Shown piece after piece: positions 5,940-22,845 of a stretch of 32,000 nt of DNA (position 1 is its first letter; each line of letters opens with the position of its first letter). The notes under the pieces were generated by a model. The model saw nothing but the letters and a program-made list of their open reading frames with translations, was not told the DNA's origin and ran no database searches. The stretch lies in the NCBI RefSeq assembly GCF_017876815.1, contig NZ_JAGIOS010000001.1:1-32000 (forward strand). The letters are read 5' to 3'. A program made the position numbers and the translations under genes. The stretch comes from Sinorhizobium meliloti (GTDB lineage: Bacteria; Pseudomonadota; Alphaproteobacteria; Rhizobiales; Rhizobiaceae).

Positions 5940-6704
5940 TTGAAAAGGACACTCAAGGCGGCGCTCGTTACCGGCGGCGCCCGACGCATCGGCAGGGCAA
6001 TAGTCGAGGATCTGGCGGCGCACGGTTTCGCGCTCGCCATTCACGCGAACGGATCGTTCGCAGAAGCGGAGGCGCTCGCCGGGAAGCTTGGAAAGACCGG
6101 CGCGAGGGCGGTCGCGCTCAGGGCCGATCTTACCGAGGTCGGCGCCGCCTCCGGGCTCGTCGCGGAGGCAACGGCCTTGCTCGGTCCGCTGGATCTCCTC
6201 GTCAACAATGCCTCGGTATTCAACAAGGACAGCCTCGCCGAGTTCGACGAAGCGGTCTGGGAGCGGCACTTCGCGCTGCATGTCAAAGCCCCCTCCCTGC
6301 TCGCCCGCGATTTTGCGCTGCAGCGGCCGGCCGACGTCTCCGGTCTGATCGTCAATGTCATCGATCAGCGCGTCTGGTCTCCAAATCCGCGCTTTTATTC
6401 CTATATGTTGTCCAAATCGGCGCTGTGGACGGCAACCCAGACGATGGCCCAGGCGCTCGCCCCCGACATTCGCGTCAACGGCATCGGACCCGGGCCGACG
6501 CTGCCCAACGAGCGACAGGATCCGCGTGATTTCGAGGCCCAGGTCGAGGCGCTCATCCTCAGGCGCGGTCCGGCGCTCGAGGAATTCGGACGTGCGATCC
6601 GCTTCCTTTTCGACACGCCGTCGGTTACCGGACAGATGATTGCACTCGACGGCGGCCAGCACCTTGCCTGGGAGACGCCGGATATTCGGGAGATAGTGGA
6701 ATGA
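5940..6704 (+). CDS. Short-chain dehydrogenase/reductase (pteridine-reductase-like SDR)
   Basis: It has a TTG start. The cofactor motif is [16 protein letters not shown], with NNAS and a YxxxK-type region (YMLSKSAL). Its stop overlaps the uvrC ATG (ATGA at 6701..6704). Confidence 0.8.
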
Positions 6705-9547: not shown

Positions 9548-9804
9548 GCACGGTAAACCTCGTCTATTTCTCCTGGGTTCGCGAGCGCATCGGCAGGCCT
9601 GAAGAAACACTGGACCTGCCGGAGAATGTCGTCACGATCGCCGACCTGCTGGGCCATCTGAAGACCCGCGGTGAGGAATATGCCGCGGTTTTCGAGCACG
9701 CGAACGTCATCCGCGCGGCGATCAACCAGGAACATGTGGAGCACGGCGAGCCGATCGCCGGCGCCCGAGAGATCGCCCTCTTCCCGCCGATGACGGGCGG
9801 CTGA
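9544..9804 (+). CDS. moaD: Molybdopterin synthase sulfur-carrier subunit MoaD
   Basis: This 86-aa protein ends in the obligatory C-terminal GG (..FPPMTGG). Its ATG overlaps the pgsA stop (ATGA). It sits inside the longer track ORF 9151..9804. Confidence 0.85.
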   Translation: MSTVNLVYFSWVRERIGRPEETLDLPENVVTIADLLGHLKTRGEEYAAVFEHANVIRAAINQEHVEHGEPIAGAREIALFPPMTGG

Positions 9805-9808
9805 AGCC

Positions 9809-10276
9809 ATGGCCGCCCCCGTCACCGTGCGCGTCCAGCGCGACGACTTCGACATCGCCGCCGAAGTCTCGGCGCTTTGCCGTGCGCGGACTGACATCGG
9901 TGCGGTGGTCACGTTTTCGGGGCTGTGCCGGGACGAGGCCGGAGCCCTCAGTGCGCTCGAGCTCGAGCATTATCCCGGCATGGCAGAGGCGGAGATCGAA
10001 CGGATATGCCACGAAGCGGTCGAGCGCTTCGGCCTGCAGGCTGCAACCGCCATCCATCGCTTCGGCCGCATGGAGCCGGGAGCGAATATCGTCCTGGTGG
10101 TGACCGCCTCGCCGCACCGGCAGGCGGCATTCGATGGCGCGAATTTCATCATGGATTTCCTGAAGACCTCGGCCCCCTTCTGGAAGAAGGAACATCACGC
10201 CGACGGCAGCGCAGGCGATTGGGTCAGCGCGAAGGATGCGGACGACGCGGCACGCGATCGCTGGACGCGCCGCTGA
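9809..10276 (+). CDS. moaE: Molybdopterin synthase catalytic subunit MoaE
   Basis: GAVVTFSGLCRD...LEHYPGMAE...VVTASPHRQAAF...FIMDFLKTSAPFWKKE are classical MoaE blocks. The gene starts 4 nt after moaD. Confidence 0.9.
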   Translation: MAAPVTVRVQRDDFDIAAEVSALCRARTDIGAVVTFSGLCRDEAGALSALELEHYPGMAEAEIERICHEAVERFGLQAATAIHRFGRMEPGANIVLVVTASPHRQAAFDGANFIMDFLKTSAPFWKKEHHADGSAGDWVSAKDADDAARDRWTRR

Positions 10277-10294
10277 TCTCTCACGCCGCCTGAA

Positions 10295-10338
10295 TCACGA
10301 TGTTTTTAGGTCGGGTCGACCTAAAAACATGAGCGTGA
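10295..10338. terminator. Long A/T-rich hairpin between convergent moaE and the LivH-like gene (possible bidirectional terminator or repeat)
   Basis: The core is atgtttttaggtcg-ggt-cgacctaaaaacat, a perfect 14-bp stem at 10300..10313 and 10317..10330. An outer tcacg/cgtga pairing extends it across a 3-nt bulge. Confidence 0.5.
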
Positions 10339-10405
10339 TAGATTCCAAGAAGTTGAGACGCGCGATGCGGGCGGAAAACCGCGCACACTTTTCCTCTTCC
10401 CGCTC
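10339..10405 (-). repeat. Second, reverse-oriented copy of the dispersed rhizobial intergenic element
   Basis: The reverse complement reads ggaaaagtgtgcgcggttttccgcccgcatcgcgcgtctcaacttcttggaatc. It shares the aaaagtg.gcgc.gcgg.ttt core with 3296..3330. The boundaries are approximate. Confidence 0.4.
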
Positions 10406-10408
10406 TGA

Positions 10409-11305
10409 TCAGGGAATGATCTTTTCCCGGCGCGTGACCACGAGCACGATCACCAGAAAGCCGAATATGGCGAAGTCCCGCCAGAGGATGGGTCCATAGG
10501 CGCTCCACACCGTCTCCATGAGGCCGATGCCGGCTGCGCCCAGTGCCGCGAATAACGGCGAAGTCTGCCCGCCGATGGCGGCGATGAACAGGACCTTGAC
10601 CCCGAAGGTCAGCCCGGTGCCGAAATCCATGTTGCCGTAATAGGAAGCAGCGAGAATCCCGCAGAACGCAGCGATCAGCGACGCCACGCCATAGGCGGCG
10701 ATATAGACCGCTCCCGGATCGATGCCGCAAAGCGCGGCGGCCTTGCGATCCTCGGAAACGGCGCGCCAGTAGCGGCCTGCATAGGAACGGGTCAACAGCC
10801 AATGGCCGCCGGCGACAAGGGCCATCATGAGCGCGGTGTTGACGAGCTGCACGACCGTCAGCGCGACCGGAAAGGCAGGGTTCGGCCAGAACACCACCAC
10901 GTCGTTCAGGAAGGGCGGCAGCCAGAGGCTTCTGGTGTCGGAGGCGAGCCGGGCCGTTTCCATCAGCACCAGCAGGCTTCCGAGCGAGGCGACGACCACG
11001 GCATTGGCGGAGGAAAAAGCCAGGGGCCGCATGACGTAGCGGCCGGCAATAAGACCGGCACCTAGCCCGAATGCGAGCGCCGCTGTCGCCCCGAGCCCGA
11101 GCGCCGCCGGCAGTACCAGCCACAGCCGGTTCCAGCCGACATCCGCGAAGAGCACGAAGATTTGCCCGGCAAAGGCGAAGAGCGCGCCATAGGTCAGGTC
11201 CGCCCGCCGTGTGACAGCAAAGGCGATCGCGTATCCGAAGGCGAGCGCCGCATAAAGCGCGGCCACGGGTACGGCATTGGCGATCTGCTGCAGAAAATAG
11301 GCCAT
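10409..11305 (-). CDS. Branched-chain amino acid ABC transporter permease, LivH family (stand-alone)
   Basis: The N-terminus MAYFLQQIANAVPVAALYAALAFGYA resembles the canonical LivH start (MEYFLQQLxNG). It has about 8 hydrophobic segments and the conserved ..RAVSEDRKAAALCGID.. loop. I chose ATG 11305 rather than TTG 11326. Confidence 0.8.
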   Translation of the reverse strand: MAYFLQQIANAVPVAALYAALAFGYAIAFAVTRRADLTYGALFAFAGQIFVLFADVGWNRLWLVLPAALGLGATAALAFGLGAGLIAGRYVMRPLAFSSANAVVVASLGSLLVLMETARLASDTRSLWLPPFLNDVVVFWPNPAFPVALTVVQLVNTALMMALVAGGHWLLTRSYAGRYWRAVSEDRKAAALCGIDPGAVYIAAYGVASLIAAFCGILAASYYGNMDFGTGLTFGVKVLFIAAIGGQTSPLFAALGAAGIGLMETVWSAYGPILWRDFAIFGFLVIVLVVTRREKIIP

Positions 11306-11372: not shown

Positions 11373-11933
11373 ATGAGCTTCACCTGGACCGCACATCGAT
11401 TCTCCGGCGGCGCGCTCGCACTGGACGTCGCCAATTCCGTGGTCATGCGCTTCGATGCGGAGCGCAGGATCGATCGCTTCGACGACCCGGCCGCGATCGA
11501 CACCTTCGCCGAGGCCGCAAATCTCTACGGCGCCGAACGGAACCGTTTCGGCACGCTCGTCCCGGCAAAATCAGAGCGCCGAAATGCATTCATCGGATTG
11601 CGCGAGGCGACGGACCGCCATTTCCGCGCCCTGGTGAGGACTGAGGACCGGCCGGATCTCCTGGCCGACCTGCTCGAGGCGATCGCCACCGTCCTGCGTC
11701 AACCCGCAGACACGCGCAAAGGCACGCCGCTCGATGTGGCCACGGCGCATTCGGCACTTGGCCTCATTGCCGGACCGGAGAGGGAACGCCTGAAAATCTG
11801 CCCCAACTGCGCGTGGCTGTTTCTCGACCGCAGCCGCAACCGGAGCAGGACGTGGTGCGACATGGCGGTTTGCGGCAACCGGACGAAGGCCAGGCGCCAT
11901 TATCGCCGCAGCAGGGAGGAACCGAAGCCATGA
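11373..11933 (+). CDS. CGNR zinc-finger domain protein (ABATE N-domain plus zf-CGNR)
   Basis: The C-terminal region reads CPNCAWLFLDRSRNRSRTWCDMAVCGNRTKARRHY, which contains the eponymous CGNR motif and a Cys4-type finger. Confidence 0.85.
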   Translation: MSFTWTAHRFSGGALALDVANSVVMRFDAERRIDRFDDPAAIDTFAEAANLYGAERNRFGTLVPAKSERRNAFIGLREATDRHFRALVRTEDRPDLLADLLEAIATVLRQPADTRKGTPLDVATAHSALGLIAGPERERLKICPNCAWLFLDRSRNRSRTWCDMAVCGNRTKARRHYRRSREEPKP

Positions 11934-13700: not shown

Positions 13701-13835
13701 TCAGGCTCCTGTACTTCGCTACCGGGCGACATAAGGGGAGCATCGCTTGCGGATCAATCATTAAATTTCATGAGTGGCATTTGCCACCGGAATACGAATT
13801 CGCGATAGGTTGCCGACCACACAAGGAGATTGCCG

Positions 13836-14348
13836 ATGCTCGACCATTACCGGATGTTTGCCGATTACAATCGCTGGGCGAACCGGCGTGTCTACGCCGC
13901 CGTCTCGGAACTATCGGATTCGGAATACCGGGAAGACAAGGGAGCGTTCTTCGGCTCGCTGCACGGGACGCTGAACCATATCCTCGTGGCGGACCGGATC
14001 TGGATGAAGCGGTTTACGAAAGAGGGCGAGGCGCCGTCGCGGCTCGACGCCATCCTGCACGAAGATCTCAACGGTCTGACGGCGGCGCGGGTGGCCGAGG
14101 ACGAGCGAATCATCGCCTGGATCGACAGCCTCGACGAGGAGCGTCTTGCGGGGCACTTCACCTATTCTCCGCTCACCAATCCGGTCGAGGTCACGGAACG
14201 GCTCGCACGGACGCTCGCTCACTTCTTCAACCATCAGACCCATCATCGTGGCCAGGCGCATGCGACCTTGACCGCGCTTAAGCACCCCTCACTGACGCTG
14301 GACCTGGTTTCCTTCCTGCGGACCGAGGGCAAGAAGTGGGCCGACTGA
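13836..14348 (+). CDS. DinB family (damage-inducible, metal-dependent four-helix bundle) protein
   Basis: MLDHYRMFADYNRWANRRV...GTLNHILVADRIW...HFFNHQTHHRGQ are the conserved DinB His motifs. An AAGGAG Shine-Dalgarno lies 7 nt before ATG 13836. The track start is TTG 13830. Confidence 0.85.
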   Translation: MLDHYRMFADYNRWANRRVYAAVSELSDSEYREDKGAFFGSLHGTLNHILVADRIWMKRFTKEGEAPSRLDAILHEDLNGLTAARVAEDERIIAWIDSLDEERLAGHFTYSPLTNPVEVTERLARTLAHFFNHQTHHRGQAHATLTALKHPSLTLDLVSFLRTEGKKWAD

Positions 14349-16958
14349 GGCGAGTCCAGGCTCGAGCCGGCCCACCGGGGCAAGCGAGATGCGCCTGTCT
14401 CGGGTCCCGGCGAGCCACGCGATGAGGCGACGCTGTCCGAGCCAGGCGGCAATCCCGAGCGCGATGCCGCCCAGGATGGAGCAGAGGGCAAAGGCGAACG
14501 GCGAGAGCAACGGCCGGATCGGCAGCAACAGCAACTCCGGCACGAAACGGTGCAGGATGTAGATGTGGAAGCCCGCTGCGGAAAGCGGCAGGATCAGCCG
14601 CCTACCCCATTGCGGCATGCGAATGCGCGGCAGGAAGAGCAGCGCGGCCAGAACGGCGATCTGCAGCAGATATTTGACTTTCGTCCCGATCCAGACGCCC
14701 TCATAGAGCCCGAGGAACAGGAATACGCCTGTCCCTGCCAGCATCACCATCGAGCGCTCTTTCCACGTTTCGGCAATTGCCGCACACCAGCCGAGCACCG
14801 CCATGTAGAAGATCCATGGAAGGGTGAATATCTGGCGGTTGCCGATATCGATGAGAAGCGGAAACGCCATCCGCGCAGCGAAGGCCGCGGCGAACAGCGC
14901 CATGCCCACGGCAAGGGGTCTCTTGGCCGCGGCGCGCCGGACGAACGGAACGGCAAACAGTGCGCCAAACACCAGCAGCATCTGACAATAGGCTTCGATG
15001 AACCAGTAGAGATAGGGCACCATGCCGTGGAGCCCGGGATCTGCGATGCCGAAATTCCCGACGAGAAAGACCGAAGCCCAGGGCACGTCGCCCCAGGCGA
15101 GCGCGTAGCCCGCCACGATCAGATAGTAGGGGACGAGTATCTGGGCGAGCGGCCGCAGCAGCTTGTCTATCGCGCCGGAGAGCAGTGCTCCGCTCTGGAA
15201 TCGCGCAAGACCGAAGCCGGCGAGAATGACCATGGCGGCCGATCCCCCCGGAATCGGCCAAAGCGTCTCGTGGTGGACAACGACCAGCAGGATCGCCAGC
15301 GCCCGGATCAGGAAATCCGCACCGATCCGGCGGCTCTTGCGCTCGCGGCCGTTATGGGCGGCGAGTGCGCCGACCGGCATTTTTTCCCAGCCCTCCGGCA
15401 GTTCTCCGAGCCTCTTCTCAAGGCCGATCGAAAGCTGGACGAAACGGAGCGAATCGCCACCAAGCGATAGAAAGCTGTCCTCCGGTCGAACCTTCTTCGG
15501 ATAGAAGAGCTGGGCAAAAAGCGCCTCGACGTCCCCCTCTTCCGAACTGCCGCACGTCGCCGCGGCCGGCCGCATGCGAAGGGCCGGGTAATCGATCTTG
15601 CCGGATGTCAATCGCGGCAACTTGTCCAGGCGGGAAGCCCCTACATGCATCAAGGTCAAGCCACTCGCCTCGACGAGCAGGCGGCGAACTTCATCCGGAT
15701 CGCCGCTTCCCACATAGTAGGCGTGGATTTCGGTGTCGTTGCCGACGACGGCGGCGGCGACGCCGTGCTGCTCCAGTGCCGCCTCCAGAGCGTCGTGACC
15801 GATTCGCAGGCCGGCAATCTTCGATATCCGCTTTGTTCGTCCGACGATCCGGAAGACGCCGTCCGCGTCTCTTACGGCCAGATCGCCGGTCCGCAATTCC
15901 GACAACTCGGCCCCCCGCGCGAGATCGGCGCGTGACGACGCGTAGCCCATCATCACATTCGGCCCGCGATAGACAAGCTCGCCGGGCTGATCGGCGCTGG
16001 AGATTATCCTTCCATCGTTATCCTCGATCGTCAGGCTCCCGCCCGGGATCGCAATGCCAATCCGGTCTTCCCTGCCCCGGAGACGGTCCGGCGGCATATA
16101 GGCCATGCGAGCCGTTGCCTCTGTCTGGCCGTACATCACGAAAAGGCGCGCATTGCGCGCGGAGAGATGCTCATTGTAGCGGCGCACGAGTTCCGGCGCC
16201 AAACGTCCGCCGGCAACAGTCATGAAGCGCAGCGCCGGAAAATCCCGCGCCCGGAACCCAGCCTTTTCCAGAAGGTCGTAGGAATAAGGGACGCCAGCGA
16301 AATTGGAGCTGGCGCTTTGCGCAAGTTCATCGAGGAAGCCCTCGTCGAGGATGGAACAGCCCGGCATATAGACGCTCGCGCCCACGGCGAGGTGGGCGTT
16401 AAGGACGGAAAGCCCGTAGGAATAGTGGAGCGGCAGGATGAGGCAGCCTCGGTCCGCTGCCGTCAAGCCGAGATATTCCGCGATCGATCGTGCATTGGAC
16501 TGGATATTCATGTGCGACAGCCGCACCCATTTTCCATGCCCGGTGCTGCCGGACGTCGAGAGCAGGACGGCAAGTTCGGGATGCGGCGCGATCGCGTCTC
16601 CCTCCAGCCGCTCCATGCGCCAACGGCCGTCAAAGCGGCGGTAGCAATATTCCGGTCTGAAGACCTCGCGGTCCCGGAGCATGGAAGCGGTGCCGCACAG
16701 GGCGACCGCGTGGCCCGCCTCGAGTGCCGCGAGATAAGCGACGACAGCGTGTTCGGAAAGGTCGGCCTCGATTGTGACCAGTCCGCGATCGCCGCGCCAC
16801 CGAGAAGCGAGCCGGTCGATGCGCTCGGCAAGTTCGCGGTAACTCACGATCCGCCCGCCGCGCAAAAGCAGCGCCGGCCGGTCGCCCCGCGCAGCCAGAC
16901 TTGCAACACCGAACGGAGACACCGAAAGTTCGCCTGAGCCGCCCAAAACCACCTCCAT
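14289..16958 (-). CDS. Tri-domain fusion: ANL adenylation domain, phosphopantetheine carrier domain and AT3 (acyltransferase-3) integral-membrane domain
   Basis: A-domain motifs: LSTSGSTGHGK (aa 133-143), LPLHYSYGL (175-183), YGQTE (276-280), RTGDL (356-360), GRTKRISKIAG (373-383) and SGKIDY (452-457). The carrier motif is FLSLGGDSLRF, with Ser503 at 15450..15452. From about aa 545 there are roughly 10-11 hydrophobic helices, starting IRALAILLVVVHHE as in AT3 TM1 with its conserved His. The start is uncertain: ATG 16958 lacks a Shine-Dalgarno, and a GGAGG within codons 2-3 precedes a TTG at codon 5. Confidence 0.85.
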   Translation of the reverse strand: MEVVLGGSGELSVSPFGVASLAARGDRPALLLRGGRIVSYRELAERIDRLASRWRGDRGLVTIEADLSEHAVVAYLAALEAGHAVALCGTASMLRDREVFRPEYCYRRFDGRWRMERLEGDAIAPHPELAVLLSTSGSTGHGKWVRLSHMNIQSNARSIAEYLGLTAADRGCLILPLHYSYGLSVLNAHLAVGASVYMPGCSILDEGFLDELAQSASSNFAGVPYSYDLLEKAGFRARDFPALRFMTVAGGRLAPELVRRYNEHLSARNARLFVMYGQTEATARMAYMPPDRLRGREDRIGIAIPGGSLTIEDNDGRIISSADQPGELVYRGPNVMMGYASSRADLARGAELSELRTGDLAVRDADGVFRIVGRTKRISKIAGLRIGHDALEAALEQHGVAAAVVGNDTEIHAYYVGSGDPDEVRRLLVEASGLTLMHVGASRLDKLPRLTSGKIDYPALRMRPAAATCGSSEEGDVEALFAQLFYPKKVRPEDSFLSLGGDSLRFVQLSIGLEKRLGELPEGWEKMPVGALAAHNGRERKSRRIGADFLIRALAILLVVVHHETLWPIPGGSAAMVILAGFGLARFQSGALLSGAIDKLLRPLAQILVPYYLIVAGYALAWGDVPWASVFLVGNFGIADPGLHGMVPYLYWFIEAYCQMLLVFGALFAVPFVRRAAAKRPLAVGMALFAAAFAARMAFPLLIDIGNRQIFTLPWIFYMAVLGWCAAIAETWKERSMVMLAGTGVFLFLGLYEGVWIGTKVKYLLQIAVLAALLFLPRIRMPQWGRRLILPLSAAGFHIYILHRFVPELLLLPIRPLLSPFAFALCSILGGIALGIAAWLGQRRLIAWLAGTRDRRISLAPVGRLEPGLASVGPLLALGPQEGNQVQRQ

Positions 16959-17082
16959 TTTAGCAAGGCGGCATATTATTGCTGACTTTGATCGTCAAGT
17001 ATAAAGCCGAAGCGAATACAGGACTTTGTGCGAAACCGATTTTCGCACGGGAGTACGCCGTTTCAAAAGGCCATCCGGGGCA

Positions 17083-17116
17083 CGAAAGGCCCGGTTCGGG
17101 GAAACCGGGCCTTTCG
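17083..17116 (-). terminator. Perfect 12-bp-stem hairpin downstream of the small secreted-protein gene
   Basis: The sequence is cgaaaggcccgg-ttcggggaaa-ccgggcctttcg. There is no clean U-tract, so terminator function is only plausible. Confidence 0.45.
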
Positions 17117-17178
17117 TTCGGGCGGAGCAAAGAGGCGCGTGGGAGGCCGCGCCTGCTCCGTGACTCGTCAGCTGCGGC

Positions 17179-17454
17179 TTAGCGGCTGAGGCCCTGGTAG
17201 TATTCGCCTTCACCGCCGGAAACGACCTTCGGCTGCGGAGCATAGCCGACGGAACCGGTGGACGTACGGTCGAGGGAGCCGTCAGCACGGCGAACGGCCG
17301 TCTGGTCACCGGCTCGCGCTGCGCGTTCGGTGTAGAGCGGCTTGTCGCTGACACCCTGATAATAGCTGCCGCCGGCAAAGGCTGCGGATGCACCGCCAAG
17401 AACGGCTGTGGCAACGAGGGTGGCGGCGAGAGCAGTATGGGTTGCGTTCCTCAT
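17179..17454 (-). CDS. Small secreted protein with YYQG motifs at both ends of the mature chain
   Basis: A CAGGAG Shine-Dalgarno lies 8 nt before ATG 17454 (the track start is GTG 17463). The signal peptide is MRNATHTALAATLVATAVLGGASAAFA|GG. The mature part is about 65 aa and reads GGSYYQG...GEGEYYQGLSR. Confidence 0.6.
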   Translation of the reverse strand: MRNATHTALAATLVATAVLGGASAAFAGGSYYQGVSDKPLYTERAARAGDQTAVRRADGSLDRTSTGSVGYAPQPKVVSGGEGEYYQGLSR

Positions 17455-17770
17455 GATCATCACTCCTGATCGGTCGTTCGCTTGAACGAAGGTTTCGTCG
17501 CGACCGTTTTGATCGGCACCATTCCGGACGCGGTGGCCTCGCCGATGGCGCCCGGTCCGATCAAAGGGTCAGAAGAGCATTCTCGTGCTCTCCGTTCGAA
17601 GATGTGGGGCCTCATCATGAGGATGGGAAGTATTGATTATCGGAACACGTTGTCCATGAATCCATAACAATCCTCACTTGAAAATGCCCTCGGCATCCTT
17701 ATTCGAGCGATCGCGGCAGCAGTGGCGCGAGCCTCTTGCCTTCCCGAAAAAGTCCGGGCAAAAGGCCCGG

Positions 17771-21670: not shown

Positions 21671-22845
21671 GGGGCAGGGCTATCGCATATGAGCGATAAG
21701 AGAAGTGAGGAATTCGTCATCCCAGCCCGCCTTTTTAATTTTCCGGCGGATGGAGGCCTTGTCGGGGTGCGATCGCAAGAGGTTGAGAGCGATCTTGCGC
21801 AAGAACGCAATGTTCTGCGGGCCGTTGTCCTTGCGGTTTCTGGCGGCGTCCTCGCGGAAGTGGACATCCAGAACCCAATGCAGGTTGTTTTCGATTTGCC
21901 AATGGGTTCTTACAACCTCGATCAGCGCGCTCGGCGACATGGTGGTTGAGAGCAGGAAGTAGCGGACATGGCTGGTCAAATGGCCGTTGGTATGACGGCT
22001 TGTGGTCTCGACGCAGCCGATGGCCTGCAGGCCCGGAAAGTTGATATCGCCGGCAGCCACAACGCTGGCGCGGCGTGTCTCGATGCGGTCATGGGCAGTC
22101 TCGGCTGCAATCTGGATGCTCTCGACGTGGCCGGCGTCCTCGATGCGGGCGAGCGCCTGGGCCAAGAGGCCGGGCTGGTTGGCCTTCAGTGCCAGAGCAT
22201 AATCGCCGCCGGCAGCGAGGATGGCGCGGGCGGTGTCGGGCCGGCAATGCAGGGCATCGGCGGTGACGATAGAGCCCTCCAGTGCCAGCAGCGCGAGCGC
22301 ATCGAGAGCCCCTTGCACCTCATTGCGGCCCGGCGCGAGCTTTTGGCCGATGACCAGACCGGGACCGGCAGCCCAGACATTGACGAAGTGGAGTGGCGTG
22401 GCCTTGGCGGCGCGCCGGTAGGCACCGCGCACCGCCTTGCCATCGATCGCTACCACCCCTTCGAGACCCTGCGCAAAGCTCGCCGTGAGACGGCGAAAGG
22501 CCGCGTCAAAGGCATCCGGATCGAGATGGCGGAAGACTGTGGAGAAGGTGTCATGGCTGGGAATGCCATAGGGCAGCGGCACGATTGTCTTCAGCCATTT
22601 TTTCTTGGCGACACCCGAAATCGGCCATATCGGTACAGCTTTCCGCACCGCAGACAATCGCCGCAACGGCAATGAACAGGATCGACGTCAACGGATGGCG
22701 CGCATTGCGACCGCGCGGATCTGGCAAATCTTCAAAGCAAGCGGCAAATCTACTCATCGAGACCTCCAAGGCAGCGGAGGACTTCATGAATCGATTTGCC
22801 GCAACAAAACAACCACTTATTCGCTATATGCGATTCCCCTGCCCC
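21671..22845 (-). mobile_element. ISAs1-family insertion sequence (~1175 bp) with ~30-bp imperfect terminal IRs
   Basis: IRL is ggggcagggctatcgcatatgagcgataag. The reverse complement of IRR is ggggcaggggaatcgcatatagcgaataag. The CAGGG-type ends match what I recall for the ISAs1 family. The element holds a single transposase reading frame whose stop lies inside IRL. I found no flanking direct repeat. If the outer 21-bp arms belong to the element, its limits would be 21650..22871. Confidence 0.8.
21680..22787 (-). pseudogene. ISAs1-family (H-repeat-associated) DDE transposase, disrupted by a 1-nt frameshift
   Basis: The N-terminal ORF 22551..22787 reads ..FEDLPDPRGRNARHPLTSILFIAVAAIVCGAESCTDMADFG, then goes out of frame. 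The homologous sequence resumes in ORF 21680..22672 as GVAKKKWLKTIVPLPYGIPSHDTF...AIDGK...THWQIENNLHWVLDV.. The junction is ttcgggtgtcgcc, the reverse complement of about 22608..22620. Confidence 0.8.

Follow-up and report, generated by a model that had tools for sequence, protein, structure and literature searches.

The 32,000-nucleotide stretch of Sinorhizobium meliloti DNA analysed here (NCBI RefSeq assembly GCF_017876815.1, contig NZ_JAGIOS010000001.1, positions 1 to 32,000 of the forward strand; hereafter the window) carries at 14289-16958, on the minus strand, a gene whose 889-aa product, counted from the ATG, fuses an adenylation domain (A), a carrier domain (T) and an AT3 membrane acyltransferase domain. 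On balance we lean towards the view that this fusion is an iron-starvation-induced, self-loading transmembrane acyltransferase. By its predicted domains it represents an uncharacterised, widespread A-T-AT3 family that belongs to both the ANL and the AT3 proteins and is not a non-ribosomal peptide synthetase (NRPS). The initial annotation of this sequence had proposed a one-protein analogue of the Dlt and Alm systems that decorate cell envelopes. The three-domain architecture held up, but the generic frame did not: operators of iron-responsive repressors on the gene point to iron starvation, rather than to envelope decoration in general, as the physiological frame.

A predicted RirA box, TGACGATCAAAGTCA (TGA-N9-TCA), is found at 16983-16997 on the minus strand, 25-40 nt upstream of the ATG. 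The first half of the box overlaps with the hexamer CTTGAC (16994-16999), which resembles a -35 element; a scan for E. coli-type promoters did not flag the CTTGAC promoter. The RirA box was defined and validated by mutagenesis in R. leguminosarum, where its TGA half is also part of the promoter (PMC1698941). Among the best 80 loci of a tighter-alignment genome scan (223 GTDB species matched), nearly all of them from Rhizobiales, 68 carry TGA-N9-TCA in the -200..+30 region, compared with 2.9 in shuffled sequences, and the background elsewhere in these loci is 0.09 per 230 nt. The instances represent 46 distinct 15-mers in which the TGA and TCA triplets are fixed and the spacers have diverged. 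By this comparison, a predicted RirA operator is conserved at the promoter in Rhizobiales. The copy of Mesorhizobium cantuariense (L001), which is located amid transposase and integrase genes, has no RirA box, which suggests that this copy was recently transferred.

In S. meliloti strain 1021 the gene is very probably SMc00592, described as a 'hypothetical transmembrane protein'; this assignment follows the consecutive locus-tag numbering counted from ndk (SMc00595) and uvrC (SMc00602). In a microarray study of the swarming transcriptome, the log-ratios of SMc00592 were -0.44, 1.47, 1.30 and -0.23 (PMC2848241, Table 2), and they follow those of hmuV, hmuT, exbB, exbD and fhuP in the same study.

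Nine of the 80 loci, those of Pararhizobium, R. giardinii, R. herbae and their kin, have an fbpC-fbpA-fbpB operon that diverges from the fusion gene, both starting from one common intergenic region. The FbpA of this Rhizobiaceae subgroup matches a solved ferric-binding protein at 1e-140, and a similar transporter lies near the fusion gene of R. grahamii. Clustering all neighbouring open reading frames (ORFs) of the 80 loci yielded no shared enzymatic partner; apart from the fbp subgroup, it recovered only an ABC-F gene in synteny and neighbours restricted to particular lineages, among them cytochrome c, superoxide dismutase and transposases. The earlier statement that no partner genes are adjacent is thus correct for Sinorhizobium but not elsewhere in the family, where an FbpABC-type importer and a D-2-hydroxyacid dehydrogenase are linked to the gene.

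A second iron signal comes from Actinomycetota, where we scanned one locus of 16-18 kb in each of seven genera. An FbpA/SfuA-type ferric importer, consisting of a substrate-binding protein, a permease and an ATPase, is adjacent to the fusion gene in 5/7 genera and in three gene orders: upstream on the same strand, with overlapping genes or a spacing of 47 nt (Saccharothrix, Amycolatopsis and Kocuria), downstream (Prauserella), or divergent (Protofrankia). The binding proteins are homologues of FbpA, HitA and SfuA, with matches of 5e-66 and 5e-109 in a search of PDB sequences. NCBIfam offered the 2-aminoethylphosphonate transporters as another identity for the linked importer, but these matches are far below the cut-off and the PDB sequence search gives FbpA/SfuA, and we have rejected that assignment.

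Using the 19-bp IdeR consensus with at most 5 mismatches, for which shuffled sequences give 0.005 matches per locus, we found a predicted IdeR box at the promoter in four of the seven loci (L085, L087, L089 and L093). In Saccharothrix and Amycolatopsis the box lies ~60 nt upstream of the operon, and in Pseudarthrobacter, where the importer is missing, it lies 32 nt upstream of the gene; two boxes occupy the divergent region in Protofrankia. Weaker IdeR-like sites are present at the equivalent position in Kocuria and Prauserella. The presence of RirA operators in Rhizobiales and of IdeR operators in Actinomycetota means that two unrelated repressors, in two phyla, point to iron. The best IdeR-like box overall, with 3 mismatches, is located just downstream of the Protofrankia gene (L093, 9749-9772), where it precedes two small function-unassigned genes at 9799-11030.

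The adenylation domain spans residues ~1-465 (15564-16958, minus strand) and matches the Pfam family AMP-binding (PF00501) at 1e-43. As read in the initial annotation, its ANL core is complete, with the A3 motif STSGSTG at residue 134 (16539-16559, minus strand), LPLHYSYGL at residue 175 in the A4 region, the A5 motif YGQTE at residue 276, GELVYRG at residue 326, the A7 motif GDLA at residue 358, the A8 motif GRTKR at residue 373 and the A10 motif SGKIDY at residue 452, which contains the catalytic Lys454 (15597-15599, minus strand). Lys454 and the core ANL motifs are invariant in an alignment of 88 sequences, and in the AlphaFold model the predicted local distance difference test (pLDDT) score of this domain is mostly above 90. 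The protein is a member of the ANL adenylate-forming superfamily.

In the invariant LPLHYSYGL block, Ser/Tyr occupies the position of the amino-binding Asp of the FDxS motif. The match to TIGR01733 in NCBIfam reaches 125 bits against a cut-off of 317, and the closest solved relatives of the domain are oxalate- and malonate-CoA ligases. The earlier proposal that the enzyme activates a carboxylic acid rather than an alpha-amino acid is supported by the missing Asp and by this kinship. In addition, four clusters of family members that are ~67% mutually identical (P0216 and P0293-P0295) carry a D-2-hydroxyacid dehydrogenase at the C-terminus of the A-T-AT3 protein, and a separate 2-Hacid_dh gene adjoins the Amycolatopsis member. 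Together, the lack of the amino-binding Asp, the relationship to oxalate and malonate ligases and the fused or neighbouring dehydrogenase argue that the activated substrate is most likely a small hydroxy- or di-carboxylic acid, which is to be taken as a lead and as no determination.

NCBIfam also relates the protein weakly to long-chain fatty-acid ligases and Aas (acyl-ACP-phospholipid O-acyltransferase), and some family members are named long-chain-fatty-acid-CoA ligase in databases. One could accordingly think of a lipid-directed enzyme that activates a fatty acid in the manner of Aas and passes the fatty acyl group to its membrane acyltransferase, thereby acylating a lipid or lipoprotein. 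We regard this as very unlikely, as the matches in question amount to ~100-120 bits against cut-offs of 476-1349, the closest solved relatives use C2-C3 diacids, and the linked gene encodes a 2-hydroxyacid dehydrogenase, with no lipid genes alongside. The carrier domain, moreover, is of the peptidyl carrier protein (PCP) type, with the signature GGDSL.

This PCP-type carrier domain extends over residues ~476-535 (15354-15533, minus strand). Its match to PP-binding (PF00550) is borderline, at 20.6 bits for the complete protein and 21.7 for the T-AT3 part alone against a cut-off of 20.8, but 11 of 15 diverse relatives that are 27-37% identical in the T-AT3 part match the profile, the best with an E-value of 9.6e-9, and distant relatives reach 39.8 bits. 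The phosphopantetheine attachment site LGGDSL begins at residue 499 and places Ser503 at 15450-15452 on the minus strand, in agreement with the original assignment. Ser503 is invariant among sequences of at least 50% identity and at least 90% conserved at ~30% identity, and a helix starts at this residue in the AlphaFold model. The attachment site is followed by a family-specific LPxGWE motif (15384-15398, minus strand), of which Pro521 and Trp524 are invariant or almost so in the family. The predicted phosphopantetheine carrier domain is, by these profile and conservation data, real at the family level.

The AT3 (TmAT) acyltransferase domain, at residues ~545-855 (14394-15326, minus strand), is similarly below threshold in the S. 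meliloti protein, in which PF01757 reaches 20-22 bits where 31 are required, although the match covers positions 6-324 of the 326 in the profile. At E<0.01 the profile is matched by 14 of the 15 relatives (best 3e-12), distant members score 61.2, 52.4, 35.8, 35.7 and 31.7 bits, and most relatives of a distant query bear all three precomputed Pfam labels. Profile searches for the three domains, which the initial annotation had suggested as a check, therefore supported PF00501 outright, whereas PF00550 and PF01757 fell below their cut-offs in the whole protein and gained their support from relatives. At the level of the family, both weakly matching domains appear to be real.

Ten hydropathy peaks at residues 545-840 and ten helices in the AlphaFold model (mean pLDDT of 85 for the full-length protein; pTM of 0.84 for the AT3 domain alone) bear out ten of the 10-11 transmembrane helices (TMHs) previously counted, and not an eleventh. 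The first helix, TMH1, contains ILLVVVHHE at residue 556 and the R/K-X10-H motif of AT3 proteins in the form of Arg552 (15303-15305) and His563 (15270-15272, both minus strand), the latter being invariant and the former at least 90% conserved; the Arg of this motif faces the cytoplasm in AT3 proteins (PMC7448272). TMH9, for which SxxxY is a criterion of AT3/TmAT proteins (PMC12423673), has an invariant Tyr800 (14559-14561) followed by an invariant His803 (14550-14552, both minus strand), and position 796 is Gly in S. meliloti and Ser in the family consensus. Together with Ser503, Gly581 and Arg586, these four residues remain invariant, or almost so, in relatives as distant as 27% identity. An hhalign comparison with E. 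coli WecH (E=0.005) aligned both the R..H of TMH1 and the IY..H of TMH9. The C-terminal tail (residues 856-889; 14292-14393, minus strand) is unconserved, with a pLDDT below 50 and no consensus in the family alignment.

Pfam and NCBIfam scans of the protein detected no condensation, thioesterase, reductase or SGNH domain, nor any other release domain, which agrees with what had been read from the sequence. Database names for family members are generic, apart from the fatty-acid ligase label discussed above and the label 'non-ribosomal peptide synthetase'; the latter is not justified, as condensation and release (thioesterase or reductase) domains are both missing from the Pfam and NCBIfam matches.

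With these elements in mind, one may propose the following course of events. Upon iron shortage, RirA would leave the promoter. The cytoplasmic A domain of the protein thus produced would adenylate a small carboxylic acid without an alpha-amino group, most likely a hydroxy- or di-carboxylic acid, and attach it as a thioester to the phosphopantetheine arm of Ser503. From its place ~25 residues before TMH1, the carrier domain would dock at the cytoplasmic mouth of the AT3 pore, and its arm would enter the pore where the pantetheine of acyl-CoA normally sits. Passing by way of His563 and Tyr800/His803, the acyl group could then reach an acceptor at the inner membrane's outer face, be it a glycan, another molecule or water, and the product would help to capture or mobilise Fe(III) for the Fbp-type importer. 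The layout of the protein, with the carrier domain directly ahead of TMH1 and the Arg end of this helix cytoplasmic, is compatible with such a route. We infer that the carrier arm feeds the AT3 pore, which would be consistent with the invariant Ser503, with the order of the domains and with a tandem duplication of the T-AT3 unit that is described below. In HGSNAT, acetyl-CoA spans the membrane: the ADP head plugs the cytosolic mouth, and the acetyl group is placed at the opposite side (PMC11357348). A carrier-fed pore is chemically reasonable, because the carrier arm corresponds to such a membrane-spanning CoA minus its nucleotide. If true, no AT3/TmAT enzyme before it would have been shown to draw its acyl donor from a carrier protein instead of CoA.

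The physiological role that we infer is support of Fe(III) acquisition. One may go further and speculate, tentatively and as a possibility that is rather doubtful for now, that the family represents the missing extracytoplasmic half of 'siderophore-independent' FbpABC/SfuABC uptake, as a one-protein pathway of neither the NRPS nor the NRPS-independent siderophore (NIS) synthetase type, whose carrier-fed AT3 pore delivers to the outside of the membrane a hydroxy- or di-carboxylic acid that binds iron. According to this speculation, ester bonds to envelope glycans would make the acid a tethered chelator, or else its release would provide a chelator or synergistic anion.

Release of the acid is the essence of a different model, in which the protein is a group-translocating exporter: the acceptor would be water or a small soluble molecule, the chelating acid would be set free outside the membrane and the envelope would not be decorated. 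The acid released in this way could serve as a low-affinity siderophore or as the synergistic anion of an FbpA-type protein. In Proteus, alpha-hydroxy and alpha-keto acids function as siderophores; for FbpA, the synergistic anion can be oxalate or citrate. The model would account for the association with FbpA/SfuA importers, whose substrate is unchelated Fe(III), for the adenylation domain being nearest to oxalate and malonate ligases, for the fusion to a 2-hydroxyacid dehydrogenase and for the lack of an SGNH or other extracytoplasmic transfer domain among the Pfam matches. Water is, however, known as the acceptor of no AT3 protein, and the ATP cost would be high for the export of a simple acid. 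We consider such an exporter improbable.

A number of observations weigh against this iron-responsive acyltransferase. At the regulatory level, TGA-N9-TCA is not rare, occurring 13 times in the window against 5.5 expected, a count that no shuffle reached; a single site is therefore common, and cross-species conservation alone carries weight. Chromatin immunoprecipitation sequencing of RirA in S. fredii reported only 10 peaks, among which the fusion gene does not appear, and the identity of our gene with SMc00592 comes from numbering. Literature searches on the fusion, on the pair of Pfam domains and on the FbpA link brought up no characterised family member; these searches and the reviews of AT3 proteins agree with the initial annotation, which knew of none with this architecture.

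The membrane domain also departs from the rule in several places. TmAT criteria include DxxR in TMH1, FxxxxG in TMH2 and RxxR in TMH3 (PMC12423673). In the fusion family the acidic residue (Asp/Glu) of TMH1 lies at -4/-6, whereas the canonical DxxR implies -3; the Phe of TMH2 is replaced by Met/Leu, with Gly581 kept; and the spacing in TMH3 is RxxxR (RxxxR-I-xx-P-Y in relatives), its second Arg being Gln in Sinorhizobium (R602...Q606). The loss of the Phe and the shift of the Asp might reflect the absent nucleotide of a carrier-bound donor. A Foldseek search of the PDB with the AT3 model gave no match at E<=0.001 and did not recover HGSNAT, a profile search of PDB sequences with the AT3 domain gave no match, and Foldseek against BFVD found one, an unnamed 637-aa protein (probability 1.0, TM 0.56). 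The fold assignment therefore stands on Pfam, the hhalign comparison, the motifs and this one BFVD match.

Finally, the iron signal does not extend to all members. The importer is absent from two of the seven actinobacterial loci, one of which, that of Actinomycetospora, has no IdeR box either. Two distant members are encoded in exopolysaccharide (EPS)/exosortase loci without an iron signal, one of them (L084) near genes for Wzx, a GT2 glycosyltransferase and a PEP-CTERM protein, the other (L090) near those for XrtV, WecG and a pyruvyl transferase. Neither a Fur box nor a RirA box was found in these two loci or in the Phenylobacterium locus. In view of the EPS/exosortase members and of the loci without importer, the role may differ between subfamilies, some of which probably acylate exopolysaccharides, and a glycan acceptor is plausible for the family as a whole.

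The same two loci bear on the possibility of generic envelope decoration, in which an organic acid would be esterified to lipopolysaccharide, EPS, cyclic glucan or peptidoglycan in a Dlt- or Alm-like manner, in the service of surface properties or the stress response, and iron regulation would be secondary. Characterised AT3 proteins do acylate extracytoplasmic glycans, and the top NCBIfam match of the adenylation domain is the exosortase-A-associated ligase TIGR03098. Nevertheless, no polysaccharide genes occur near the 80 Rhizobiales loci, and the combination of RirA and IdeR operators with recurrent linkage to ferric importers is specific to iron, so that we hold generic decoration to be unlikely. 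It partly overlaps with the iron-responsive acyltransferase that we favour, whose acceptor may still be a glycan.

We searched 1.84 billion representative sequences with the T-AT3 part as query and obtained 1224 clusters at E<1e-3, 883 of them at E<1e-10. Most are 840-880 aa long and match at about residues 470-850, indicating the same architecture; shorter matches start within the A10 motif and represent fragments at contig ends. Full-length conservation is seen in more than 100 clusters with identities of 50-100%; hundreds of further clusters, down to ~30%, show it too, and two family-specific peptide patterns matched 223 GTDB species. Members occur in Rhizobiales (Sinorhizobium, Ensifer, Rhizobium, Mesorhizobium, Phyllobacterium and Shinella), in Caulobacterales (Phenylobacterium) and in Actinomycetota (Saccharothrix, Amycolatopsis, Actinophytocola, Prauserella, Kocuria, Pseudarthrobacter and Protofrankia). 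The A-T-AT3 fusion is thus ancient and widespread in Alphaproteobacteria and Actinomycetota. An unusual architecture with sub-threshold Pfam scores in this one protein could in principle arise from a sequencing or assembly error that fused separate genes, or mark a decaying pseudogene. Such an artefact is extremely improbable and is effectively refuted, since the same full-length ORF is present in 194 S. meliloti sequences on 16 or more contigs and in hundreds of species of two phyla, with the catalytic residues kept; the single-ORF fusion, on which the initial annotation depended, is genuine.

Variants of the architecture were found among metagenomic sequences. P0142 has two tandem copies of the T-AT3 unit behind a single A domain (T-AT3-T-AT3), and the proteins of P0142 and P0320 are ~1210-1226 aa long. 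In P0256 the T-AT3 part is fused to a PhoD-like phosphodiesterase, and a separate PhoD gene (L002, 3777-5222) is located three genes upstream of the R. grahamii member.

In the window itself the ORF of 889 codons is uninterrupted, as predicted. The NCBI protein AGA06132.1 of S. meliloti, named 'AMP-dependent synthetase', is identical except that it starts four codons (12 nt) later and has 885 aa. A Shine-Dalgarno-like GGAGG at 16952-16956 (minus strand) is placed five bases before the TTG at 16944-16946, making this TTG a likelier start than the ATG; the real translation start is therefore probably the TTG, with a product of 885 aa. The surrounding genes are of a housekeeping kind and comprise ndk, a glutathione S-transferase gene, a DinB-family gene, the gene of a small secreted protein and an ABC-F ATPase gene. 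The two immediate neighbours had been correctly named beforehand. The DinB-family gene (13830-14348, plus strand; Pfam DinB, 5e-25) is convergent with the fusion gene and overlaps it with its 3' end by 60 nt, within the region that encodes the unconserved tail. In Saccharothrix and Amycolatopsis, too, a DinB-superfamily (MDMPI_N) gene directly follows that of the relative downstream (L085, 10593-11441, and L087, 10727-11356, respectively), and there may be a weak recurring association between these genes and the fusion family.

On the upstream side, at 17179-17463 (minus strand), lies the gene of a protein of 94 aa that has a signal peptide and two YYQG motifs (GGSYYQGVS ... GEYYQGLSR). We considered this protein as a part of the system and rejected it: it is confined to Sinorhizobium/Ensifer, and the linkage is not tight, its gene often lying 2 kb further from the fusion gene. 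A second, weaker copy adjoins the gene in many Sinorhizobium/Ensifer genomes. A G+C-rich hairpin at 17085-17114 (minus strand), after this small upstream gene, would part its transcript from the promoter of the fusion gene, and a 139-aa ORF at 16995-17414 looks non-coding. Further features of the window are a DDE_Tnp_1 transposase gene at 21680-22672 (minus strand), probably belonging to an insertion sequence and ~5 kb from the fusion gene, and a CGNR zinc-finger/ABATE putative stress regulator at 11373-11933 (plus strand), between the moaE-side genes and ndk. The remaining 12 TGA-N9-TCA sites of the window appear in or near unrelated genes, for example at 6346-6360 upstream of uvrC.

Compared with known systems, the fusion is closest in its membrane domain to the AT3/TmAT proteins, such as OafA, OafB, Oac, OatA, WecH, ExoZ, NolL and human HGSNAT. 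It has in common with them the domain of ten helices, the R-X10-H of TMH1, the Gly of TMH2, the Arg of TMH3, the (S)xxxY followed by His of TMH9, and a presumed movement that carries the acyl moiety from the cytoplasmic face to the outer one. It differs in not keeping the Phe of TMH2 and the Asp of DxxR, in falling below the Pfam threshold and in possessing an N-terminal A-T loading module, which the known members lack, using acyl-CoA instead. Reviews of the AT3 proteins list only AT3-only, AT3-SGNH and AT3-racemase architectures, and give acyl-CoA, not an acyl carrier protein, as the donor (PMC7448272 among them). A family with A and T domains of its own implies a second donor route for AT3/TmAT enzymes, which would parallel that of DltB mechanistically, in an unrelated fold, and would widen cell-surface chemistry beyond CoA-activated acids.

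The parallel with DltA/DltC/DltB/DltD consists in the sequence of ATP-dependent adenylation, carrier thioester and a polytopic membrane transferase that receives the acyl group from the pantetheine arm of the carrier and passes it outward. Dlt, however, comprises four separate proteins, its DltB is an MBOAT of unrelated fold, its substrate is D-alanine, for which the amino-binding Asp is present, and it is not under iron regulation. AlmE/AlmF/AlmG, which attach glycine to Vibrio lipid A, likewise combine an adenylation enzyme, a carrier and a membrane-associated transferase and have an envelope target, but these again are separate proteins with an amino-acid substrate, and AlmG is of the LpxL type and acts at the cytoplasmic face. 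With a predicted AT3 membrane domain and an A domain that lacks the amino-binding Asp, the fusion is thus an analogue of Dlt and Alm in logic only. Aas resembles it as a single membrane-bound polypeptide with an ANL domain and an acyltransferase, the latter being of the PlsC type, however, and directed at lipids with long-chain fatty acids; Aas has neither a fused carrier nor an AT3 domain.

The prediction is directly testable, as S. meliloti is genetically tractable, and the operators and ferric-importer neighbours give a widespread orphan gene a concrete, testable role, which may help to explain how Fe(III) is supplied to Fbp/Sfu-type importers in soil bacteria and symbionts. With the NRPS and NIS siderophore synthetases the fusion has in common a predicted iron-repressed expression and the ATP-dependent activation of a carboxylate and, in the case of NRPS, a carrier domain; it differs from them in having no condensation, thioesterase or IucA/IucC domain, and release of its product would be through a membrane pore. 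The FbpABC/SfuABC/YfuABC ferric importers, finally, are not homologues of the fusion but its genomic partners in Actinomycetota and some Rhizobiaceae, under the same predicted regulators.

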